From: Escherichia coli
Lineage (GTDB): Bacteria > Pseudomonadota > Gammaproteobacteria > Enterobacterales > Enterobacteriaceae
DNA: 64,000 bases
Direction: 5' to 3' (one strand)
Assembly (NCBI RefSeq): GCF_029227855.1
Contig: NZ_CP074356.1
Below, piece after piece: positions 30,960 to 32,383 of the stretch. The notes under the pieces are model-generated. The model searched no databases, was not told the origin of the DNA, and was given only the letters and a program-made list of their open reading frames with translations. The translations under genes and the position numbers were made by a program. Positions within the stretch are counted from its first letter, which is position 1; each line of letters opens with the position of its first letter.

Positions 30960-31125
30960 GTAATGCACGTGTCAGTATGATGAGCTGACCACACTCACGT
31001 GGGTGGACTGGTATAACAATCGACGATTGCTGGAAAGGCAGGGCCATATCCCACCGGCAGAAGCAGAAAAAGCTTATTATGCTTCCATCGGAAACGATGA
31101 TCTGGCAGCCTGAGTTCACAGATAA
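30960..31125. repeat. IS629 right-end remnant joined to an IS3-type terminal repeat fragment
   Basis: 30960..31085 repeats 56762..56929 (IS629 3' end); followed by cacttagccgcgtgtccattattgctggataagatca, resembling the IS3 end at 52628..52665. Confidence 0.5.
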
Positions 31126-31450
31126 AACACTCTCCAGGAAACCCGGGGCGGTTCACTTAGCCGCGTGTCCATTATTGCTGGATAAGATCATAACGATACA
31201 CCGGGTTAAACAGGTGGTCACTGCTTCACTGAAGCTGCGTGATTATGATGGTCAGGTAGCAGAAGCTATGCCCATGATACCAAAATGACGAAAGCCGAAA
31301 TGTCTGAAAGCGTGTGTATTACCTGAAAATATGACCGGCTCCGGGGTACGTAACCGATTCAACAAAGCCAATCGATATTACAAAACGAGAGGGACTATAT
31401 ATTTCGTTTTCAGATAAGACTCCTTGAGAGATTATCTTTTATGTAAAATC

Positions 31451-31744
31451 TCAAATATCACCTGATGTAATGTCAATGATAATATTAAGTGCGCTCTGAA
31501 CAACATCTTTCTTGGTGTGATTAACATCTGACAAAAAGAACATCAGCTTCTTTATTATGTTCTTGTTGTTTATTATTTCACGCTCACAGAATAAAGCGTT
31601 GACTGCCTCTTCTATGACATTTCTCTCGTAAAAAAATTGAGAGTTAGCTTCATATAAAATATTGGCCAATTTTTCACCAAAAACCATATTATAATAATCA
31701 CTGTGCATCTTTCTCCCCCAGGGTTCAGTCAATAATTTTACCAT
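31451..31744 (-). CDS. hypothetical protein in AT-rich region (97 aa)
   Basis: ORF only. Confidence 0.3.
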   Translation of the reverse strand: MVKLLTEPWGRKMHSDYYNMVFGEKLANILYEANSQFFYERNVIEEAVNALFCEREIINNKNIIKKLMFFLSDVNHTKKDVVQSALNIIIDITSGDI

Positions 31745-32019
31745 GCCTAATTATGACAGGTGTAACAAGCATATTTTGCTATATAAATAAAATACATAAT
31801 ACTGATTATTGTAAGAACAGGAAGCAGACTAATGTTTTTTTTTGTGAGCACATTCCTTCTTATGTAGGAAGAGGCTGTATTATATTAAGTCAACTCTTTT
31901 TTACTAAAAACATTATCTATGCCATCAAAGTTGCCTGCTAGCTAATTTTTAGGATATCGCCTTGTCGTGGATTATGCACTCTAAACATGTAGAAGGTATT
32001 CATTATAAATACACAGACG

Positions 32020-32383
32020 GCCATCTTTTGTAAAATGGATGCCGTTTTAAGTGAGATTCTGATTTTCAAATTGTTCCGGACTGAGACCGCCACACCAACT
32101 GTACCATCGCCAGCGATTGTAATCGCACTCGATATAATTAAGTAAGTTTGCTGATTTTGCTGTTTACTGCGACAGATGTAAAGCTGTGGTGATTCATGCA
32201 GACTAAGTTCACGGACTCCGGCAGTAACACCGATGCATTCTGCAAGCTTCAGATCTTAACTACGAAATTCATGCGAATGGTGTTTACGTTTTTTTACTGG
32301 TTGAAACTGTTTTGTCTTGTGAGTCACCTCTGACTGAGAGTTTACTCACTTAGCCGCGTGTCCACTATTGCTGGGTAAGATCA
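32020..32383. mobile_element. IS3-like internally deleted derivative (both ends present, ~360 bp)
   Basis: Right-end-like sequence …ttttcaaattgttccggactgagaccgcc and left end …tgagtcacctctgactgagagtttactcacttagccgcgtgtccactattgctgggtaagatca match the IS3 copy at 51408..52665. Confidence 0.5.

Follow-up and report, generated by a model that had tools for sequence, protein, structure and literature searches.

The window, a stretch of 64,000 nt, is an Escherichia coli genomic island at tRNA-Leu(CAA) (leuX), and the span studied here lies between a phytase-like esterase gene and ykiE-fecIRABCDE. From left to right, this span contains three abutting tips of insertion sequences (cluster A), an intact gene for a YmgB/AriR-family protein, an internally deleted IS3-type element (remnant B) and the last nucleotides of an IS1 (Table 1). 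Annotation by PGAP at identical loci in public genomes gives 'IS3 family transposase, incomplete' twice, with the addition 'missing N-terminus' in the case of fragment A1, 'IS5/IS1182 family transposase, frameshifted, incomplete' for fragment A3, and the YmgB/AriR-family gene. A first-pass annotation had proposed that these stretches are IS-derived and had suggested a comparison of the window with itself as a check; this origin was borne out by BLAST of the window against itself, by the PGAP pseudogene labels and by a Pfam rve_2 match. The product of the YmgB/AriR-family gene matches Pfam PF10798 (YmgB) with E = 4.9e-6 and 26.7 bits, compared to a cut-off of 22.3, and the gene is a passenger without IS origin. 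When 30700-32650 was scanned for promoters and terminators, 7 promoter-like sites were obtained versus 6.3 expected, that is, no signal.

Four matches were found when 30700-32650 was used as a BLAST query against the rest of the window, which carries an intact IS3 and an IS629. The latter is interrupted by a group II intron, for which ltrA is annotated by PGAP in strain E24377A, and it is adjoined by an integrase pseudogene and by tRNA-Leu(CAA). The split IS629 and fragment A1 have the same orientation. Remnant B and the intact IS3 form direct repeats that are 20,282 nt apart, and the DNA between them carries the fec operon, the polysaccharide-deacetylase/capU/virK/lpxM genes and the BCCT transporter and DUF2254 genes. 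Positions 44000-64000 of the window are 100% identical to E24377A, and elsewhere this strain differs from the window by an IS1-containing junction and extra insertions.

Table 1. Positions of IS-derived sequences and of neighbouring features in the window.
Feature	Position	Strand	Description
GTPase-family gene	19348-20283		intact in the window
Phytase-like esterase gene	29342-30715	minus	left neighbour of the span
Fragment A1, IS629-type end	30982-31155	plus	IS629 nt 1137-1310, last 174 nt
Fragment A2, IS3-type left inverted repeat	31156-31190	minus	outer 35 nt, tip at 31190
Fragment A3, IS903-group (IS5 family) 3' end	31191-31369	plus	frameshifted transposase C-terminus, terminal repeat tip 31357-31369
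YmgB/AriR-family gene	31451-31744	minus	intact, 97 codons, between cluster A and remnant B
Remnant B, right-end part	32017-32141	minus	32030-32141 correspond to IS3 nt 1134-1245
Remnant B, deletion junction	32142-32145	minus	4 unassignable nt (TTAC on the minus strand)
Remnant B, left-end part	32146-32383	minus	IS3 nt 1-238, tip at 32383
IS1, last 5 nt (TTACC)	32384-32388		just outside B, followed by the ykiE-fecI region
fecI	start 32625
Intact IS3	51408-52665	minus	1258 nt; 'IS3-like element IS3 family transposase, programmed frameshift' (PGAP, E24377A)
IS629, split	53350-56929	plus	796 + 514 = 1310 nt; 'IS3-like element IS629 family transposase' (PGAP, E24377A)
Group II intron in IS629	54146-56415
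tRNA-Leu(CAA) (leuX)	58230-58314	minus

Three IS tips abut in cluster A

Fragment A1 is the right end of an IS629-type element. In BLAST analyses, positions 30982-31157 matched 56756-56931 with 96.6% identity (E = 2e-80), and over A1 itself 168 of 174 nt were identical to the window's own IS629 (56756-56929), leaving six private substitutions. A1 comprises the last 43 codons and the stop codon of orfB (30982-31113) as well as an intact tip of the right repeat, which ends with ...GGGGCGGTTCA at 31155, and the same tip, ...CCCGGGGCGGTTCA, is found in the window's IS629. A1 therefore has the exact right tip in common with IS629/IS1203 (IS3 family, 1310 nt); unlike that element, it amounts to only 13% of the full length and has neither the left end nor a whole transposase. 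For the 43-residue IS629 tail, a piece that is too short, no significant Pfam match was obtained. The first-pass annotation had assigned 30960-31085 to the 3' end of IS629, and it was right with regard to the origin of the fragment; its limits have to be moved to those given in Table 1, and 30960-30981 did not align with IS629. At most 5 nt beyond A1 (30977-30981) are common to the window and to plasmid p1493-3.

Fragment A2, which reads TGATCTTATCCAGCAATAATGGACACGCGGCTAAG on the minus strand, fits the left-repeat type of IS3 and not the right-repeat type. Positions 31153-31190 matched 52628-52665 with 94.7% identity (E = 6e-11), with 36 of 38 nt shared with the left repeat of the intact copy of IS3. 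An IS3-like terminal repeat following the IS629 end, as previously proposed, is therefore present, the count of 36 of 38 including the three nucleotides 31153-31155 (TGA on the minus strand) that are common to the IS629 tip and the IS3-type repeat. Because of these 3 shared nucleotides, the IS629-type element can be positioned at nt 35-38 of the IS3-type repeat.

Fragment A3 and the IS1 tip located after remnant B had both been missed in the first-pass annotation. Like members of the IS903 group, A3 has a 13-nt tip and a recognisable transposase C-terminus. The tip, ATTCAACAAAGCC, agrees with the terminal repeat of IS903B in 13 of 13 positions, and the IS903-group repeat start GGCTTTGTTGAA was found. 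A translation of A3 (...SLKLRDYDGQVAEAM...) aligns to the C-terminus of the IS903B transposase. However, A3 is frameshifted, measures about 180 nt and shows no more than 74% DNA identity when aligned with the 3' end of the pLKSZ04 gene for the IS903B transposase (133 alignment columns with a 10-nt gap). The 31-residue IS903-like piece was too short as well and gave no significant Pfam match.

Remnant B is an IS3 variant with a large internal deletion

The two parts of remnant B match nt 1-238 and nt 1134-1245 of IS3 in the order and orientation of that element. The left-end part (32146-32383) aligned with 52428-52665 at 89.2% identity (E = 7e-86), and in the right-end part positions 32030-32141 aligned with 51421-51532 at 83.9% identity (E = 2e-29). 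The left inverted repeat is complete, with its TG tip, and in its outermost 66 nt the left-end part does not differ from IS3. The start codon of orfA is destroyed (ATG to AAG), and this reading frame has suffered three indels and contains 6 stops in its translation. The right-end part encodes the last 32 codons of orfB, followed by the inner right repeat, and this orfB tail (32050-32145, minus strand) gave the Pfam match to rve_2 with E = 3.9e-7, above the cut-off. Between both parts, IS3 nt 239-1133 (895 nt) are missing, that is, almost all of orfA and orfB, including the frameshift site. At 32017-32029, where the outermost part of the right repeat would be expected, about 3 of 13 positions match the IS3 tip when three IS3-type right ends are aligned.

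In contrast to IS3, remnant B has no pair of terminal repeats of the form 5'-TG...CA-3', the right tip being unrecognisable, and all that is left of an orfA/orfB transposase of the DDE (rve) type made by -1 frameshifting is the 32-residue rve_2 tail. As one end is dead and a transposase is missing, B is unable to transpose. The first-pass annotation had described 32020-32383 as retaining both IS3-like ends and lacking the transposase genes; the latter statement is correct except for the orfB tail, and with regard to the ends the left one is whole and the right one can be recognised only from 32030 inward.

In its interior, B is 84-91% identical to canonical IS3, and variant bases at 32197-32265 are common to B and to an IS3-family element of plasmid pMS20654. 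Both observations indicate that B descends from an IS3 variant and is not a decayed canonical copy. When a closer full-length parent was sought in plasmids, none above 84-92% identity was found, the best candidates being canonical IS3 (about 85%), pMS20654 for the left part (92%) and, for the right part, a fragment from a Shigella flexneri plasmid (86.6%).

The window lost an IS1 next to the fec genes

From 32384 onward the window reads TTACCGAAATCC, with TTACC directly after the tip of B and GAAATCCCC next. In strains L001, E24377A and K-12 a full IS1, which is IS1F in the case of K-12, ends at this point with ...GGCAGCATTACC immediately before GAAATCCCC, and in most genomes a B-type tip is followed by 71 nt, by a whole IS1 ending with ...GCATTACC, and then by GAAATCCCC. 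The window-type junction, in which the tip directly adjoins TTACC, occurs in 102 genomes, O104:H4 strains among these, versus 2062 genomes with the junction between an IS3-type left-repeat tip and the 71-nt flank, some of which carry a full IS3 in place of B. These numbers, together with the retention of the 5-nt IS1 tip, identify the state of the window as a derived deletion: the window lost the IS1 except for its last 5 nt, along with the 71-nt flank.

The module is widespread and usually present once per genome

The whole of 30700-32650 was found with at least 99% identity, at one place each, in 1529 of 5426 complete E. coli genomes, and parts of it were also found on about 50 plasmids. A query covering the deletion junction of B (32092-32195) detected this junction in 1693-1713 of the same 5426 genomes, at a total of 1766 places and with a median of one per genome, and full-length copies of B are carried by about 50 plasmids. 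In plasmid p1493-3, the only one of these plasmids that was inspected, B adjoins the same YmgB-family gene, and this left-hand context was the same for all B loci inspected.

Recombinants at the sites of both relics

A chimeric query revealed a longer IS629-type element at the site of fragment A1 in 26 other genomes. Strain NCTC11151 carries a full-length IS629 at this site, and its 5' part is canonical (no mismatch over 340 nt upstream, and canonical bases at the positions equivalent to 30984 and 30988), while its 3' part has the bases private to the fragment at 31040, 31049, 31050 and 31053, which places the crossover between 30988 and 31040. The left flank of this hybrid element corresponds to window positions 17872-19847 and ends inside the GTPase-family gene, and NCTC11151 has an 11.1-kb deletion between two IS629 sequences. 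Judged by its base pattern, the hybrid would be the signature of homologous recombination between fragment A1 and an IS629 located 11.1 kb upstream, and it supports such an exchange.

At the site of remnant B, the evidence comes from two circular records, 'plasmid tig00002623' of strain AR_0162 (23,332 nt) and pEC11-5 of strain EC11 (21,115 nt), neither of which has an annotated replication gene. Both circles contain IS3, the 71-nt flank, IS1, ykiE, fecIRABCDE, the deacetylase/capU/virK/lpxM genes and the BCCT and DUF2254 genes, and their content extends exactly from just past the tip of B through the equivalent of the intact IS3 (51408-52665). The direct repeats of the window thus have a counterpart, in these two assemblies, in a recombinant that consists of one repeat plus the intervening segment, as would be expected for an excisable or amplifiable unit. 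The IS3 of the circle is canonical up to within 66 nt of its tip and, therefore, the crossover took place in the identical last 66 nt or at the tip. The chromosome of AR_0162 retains the complete island, and its circular contig shows many indels across most of its length. With the chimeric query composed of IS3 and the 71-nt flank, only rows with 100% coverage were used, as any IS3 passes a coverage cut-off of 80%. The reciprocal deletion product, in which the tip of B would be joined to the flank of the intact IS3 on the TetR side, was absent from the 5426 genomes, the best full-length match (93.9%) being canonical IS3.

Discussion

Taken together, the span very probably consists of inert IS relics, left by at least five events in the leuX island upstream of fec, and any remaining activity would be due to their role as patches of homology or, possibly, to single tips recognisable by a transposase. 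Neither relic possesses a transposase or two usable ends and, therefore, neither is mobile. In cluster A, an IS3-type element may have inserted into an IS903-group element as a first step, an IS629-type element may next have entered 35-38 nt inside the left repeat of the IS3-type element, and a later single deletion would have removed all leftward DNA up to IS629 nt 1136, leaving three abutting tips. We infer this order, which is unprovable as the left junctions are gone and target-site duplications are uncheckable. Remnant B would have arisen when an IS3 variant lost nt 239-1133 and, afterwards, the tip of its right repeat, and the IS1 that follows would have been deleted down to its last 5 nt after the decay of B. 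Cluster A, B and the YmgB/AriR-family gene between them would since have been carried passively, as a fixed module, on chromosomes and plasmids.

Deletion within one element is not the only way in which remnant B might have been formed. Its two parts could be a right end and a left end of separate IS3-type origin that were juxtaposed by rearrangement, and the unequal divergence of the parts from canonical IS3 (83.9% versus 89.2%), their nearest relatives in different records (the S. flexneri plasmid fragment and pMS20654, respectively) and the 4 unassignable nt at the junction speak in favour of such an origin. However, both parts are co-oriented, stand in the order of a single element just 4 nt apart and are both non-canonical IS3 variants, and one deletion of 895 nt would explain them more simply, so we regard juxtaposition as improbable. 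Even less credit can be given to the idea that B is a non-autonomous, MITE-like element that is still mobilised in trans by the transposase of IS3. The perfect left end with 66 outer nt identical to IS3, the small size of about 367 nt and the presence on chromosomes and plasmids alike would suit such an element, but transposition in the IS3 family requires both ends, and the right repeat has lost its outer 13 nt. Furthermore, 1766 places with a median of one per genome are not the copy number of a mobile element, the left-hand context is constant at every locus inspected, and no target-site duplication, which would measure 3-4 nt in the IS3 family, is visible for B, its right tip and original flanks having been lost in later deletions. 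Due to the single copy per genome, the constant left context and the degraded right tip, an identity of B as a MITE was rejected.

With B regarded as an internally deleted and immobile IS3 variant, the variable flanks found next to intact IS tips still call for an explanation. The relics might be active substrates, with a transposase provided in trans acting on a single end and causing adjacent deletions, and several junctions indeed coincide precisely with an IS tip. Next to the tip of B, the window has TTACC, most genomes have the 71-nt flank and IS1, and plasmid p1493-3 has an ester-cyclase gene. In the window the IS629 tip joins the IS3-type repeat at its nt 35, as opposed to nt 17 in pLKSZ04, which corresponds to an exact, tip-anchored deletion of 18 nt, and about 49 further plasmids matched the same query at 94% over a place of 283 nt, consistent with the 18-nt deletion variant. 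In strain NCCP 13963 the left tip of IS3 meets IS1 approximately at nt 57, a tip-anchored deletion of 127 nt when compared to BEC1-S17. However, an exchange with an intact IS3 bearing another flank would keep the tip exact as well, the last 66 nt being identical, and intact IS3 copies that abut the same 71-nt flank do occur. In addition, the crossover in the hybrid IS629 of NCTC11151 is internal, which is a signature of homologous recombination. On balance, we consider single-end activity of the relics rather unlikely, and from their sequences the junctions at IS3 tips could be explained equally well by transposase action on a single end or by an exchange of flanks within the identical 66 nt.

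Relics that serve as patches of homology may recombine with intact copies of IS629 or IS3 and thereby cause deletion, excision or duplication of the intervening DNA. That the remnants provide homology for recombination had been a conjecture of the first-pass annotation, and it gains support from the hybrid of NCTC11151 and from the circles of AR_0162 and EC11; we infer a recombinant origin of these structures, be it by homologous recombination or by transposase action. A more far-reaching proposal, which we put forward with reservation and deem doubtful for the time being, is that B and the intact IS3 delimit a fec unit of about 20 kb that is repeatedly excised as a circle without a replication gene, or amplified in tandem, with the crossover confined to the conserved 66-nt tip. 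The circular contigs could also be the way in which an assembler renders a tandem duplication, rather than free circles. If the proposal is true, the unit formed by B and IS3 would be a route for changes in the copy number of the ferric-citrate system or for its transfer between chromosome and plasmids. The fec locus is tied to mastitis and virulence.

Units of excision or amplification that are bounded by IS copies are known from direct IS repeats and from the translocatable units of IS26, and the pair of B and IS3 resembles them in that the circle contains one IS3 plus about 20 kb of DNA. It differs from them in that one of its repeats is a relic of 238 nt rather than a functional IS, no replicative mechanism of the IS26 type is implied, and the circle is known only from assemblies. 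The KpLE2/leuX phage-like element of K-12 is an IS-dense island of the same tRNA-Leu type with fecIRABCDE and ykiE; in K-12 positions 4514000-4522000, IS1F adjoins ykiE-fecI and is followed by yjhU, and the annotation of this stretch lists neither a YmgB-family gene nor remnants of IS3, IS629 or IS903. High instability has been reported for the fec/KpLE2 region, and in MG1655 nine IS lie close to fec (PMC4951805). Apart from this general statement on an IS-dense and unstable region, the literature consulted contained nothing specific to these scars or circles. The scars themselves are ordinary and already annotated in public genomes, and the instability of the region was known before.

The precise boundaries of the module upstream of fec have now been mapped, and relics of 174 nt and 238 nt may suffice for deletion or excision at the scale of kilobases in natural strains. 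Likewise, where a long-read assembly lists a small 'plasmid' that lacks a replication gene, as with tig00002623 and pEC11-5, this record may represent a chromosomal unit bounded by IS copies.

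Circular records and rearrangements at remnant B

Two complete records, NZ_CP021680.1 from strain AR_0162 (locus L011, whole record, 23.3 kb) and NZ_CP060942.1 from strain EC11 (locus L017, whole record, 21.1 kb), were deposited as plasmids and carry no replication gene annotation. Both correspond exactly to the chromosomal interval between remnant B, the internally deleted IS3-type element, and the intact IS3 (window 32384-52665), and the fec operon lies inside this interval. The AR_0162 chromosome retains the island besides the plasmid-deposited record.

Remnant B is directly followed by a scar of IS1. 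The window-type deletion comprises 71 nt of flank and 763 nt of IS1 and was found in 102 of the 5426 complete E. coli genomes searched, O104:H4 strains among them. In plasmid p1493-3 (locus L004, 5368-7855), the tip of remnant B is followed by genes for an ester-cyclase, a helix-turn-helix regulator and an MBL-fold hydrolase and then by IS1; chromosomal islands lack these genes. Strain NCCP 13963 (locus L018, 5488-6745) harbors a complete canonical IS3 within remnant B, inserted after window position 32268 and with its left tip joined to IS1 at about nt 57, which represents yet another rearrangement of the remnant B locus. An intact IS3, the 71-nt flank and IS1 also occur together in a different island, beside a tRNA-Arg gene, in BEC1-S17-ESBL-09 (locus L009, 4140-5528). 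As implied by the junction counts, there are several hundred genomes in which the tip of an IS3-type left repeat is joined to the 71-nt flank but which lack remnant B.

Nested IS tips and variants of cluster A

Because the 3' end of an IS903-group element adjoins the IS3-type repeat, cluster A contains the tips of three IS elements, nested in one another; the IS903-group piece was absent from the first-pass annotation. On plasmid pLKSZ04 (locus L005, 5256/5257), an exact 18-nt deletion begins at the IS629 tip (window 31156-31173) and the IS3-type repeat is cut to 17 nt. About 49 further plasmids match the query used for this variant with 94% identity over 283 nt; these matches are consistent with the same 18-nt deletion.

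At the site of cluster A, NCTC11151 (locus L019, 3065-4376) possesses a full-length hybrid IS629, in part canonical and in part fragment A, the IS629-type remnant of cluster A, with the crossover placed between window positions 30988 and 31040. The hybrid is accompanied by an 11.1-kb deletion (window 19848-30981) that truncates a GTPase-family gene.

Features at the IS scars and in the IS629 copy of the window
Feature	Position	Remark
IS903-group (IS5 family) element, 3' end	31191-31369	directly behind IS3-type repeat
IS1, last 5 nt (TTACC)	32384-32388	full IS1 here in most genomes and in K-12
Group II intron with ltrA reverse transcriptase/maturase gene	54146-56415	splits IS629 copy

Other repeats

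Related islands contain a second copy of the ltrA group II intron, which lies within a different IS3-family pseudogene on the downstream side of fecE. A perfect 82-nt direct repeat is present at window positions 26853-26934 and 46382-46463, with a spacing of 19,529 nt.
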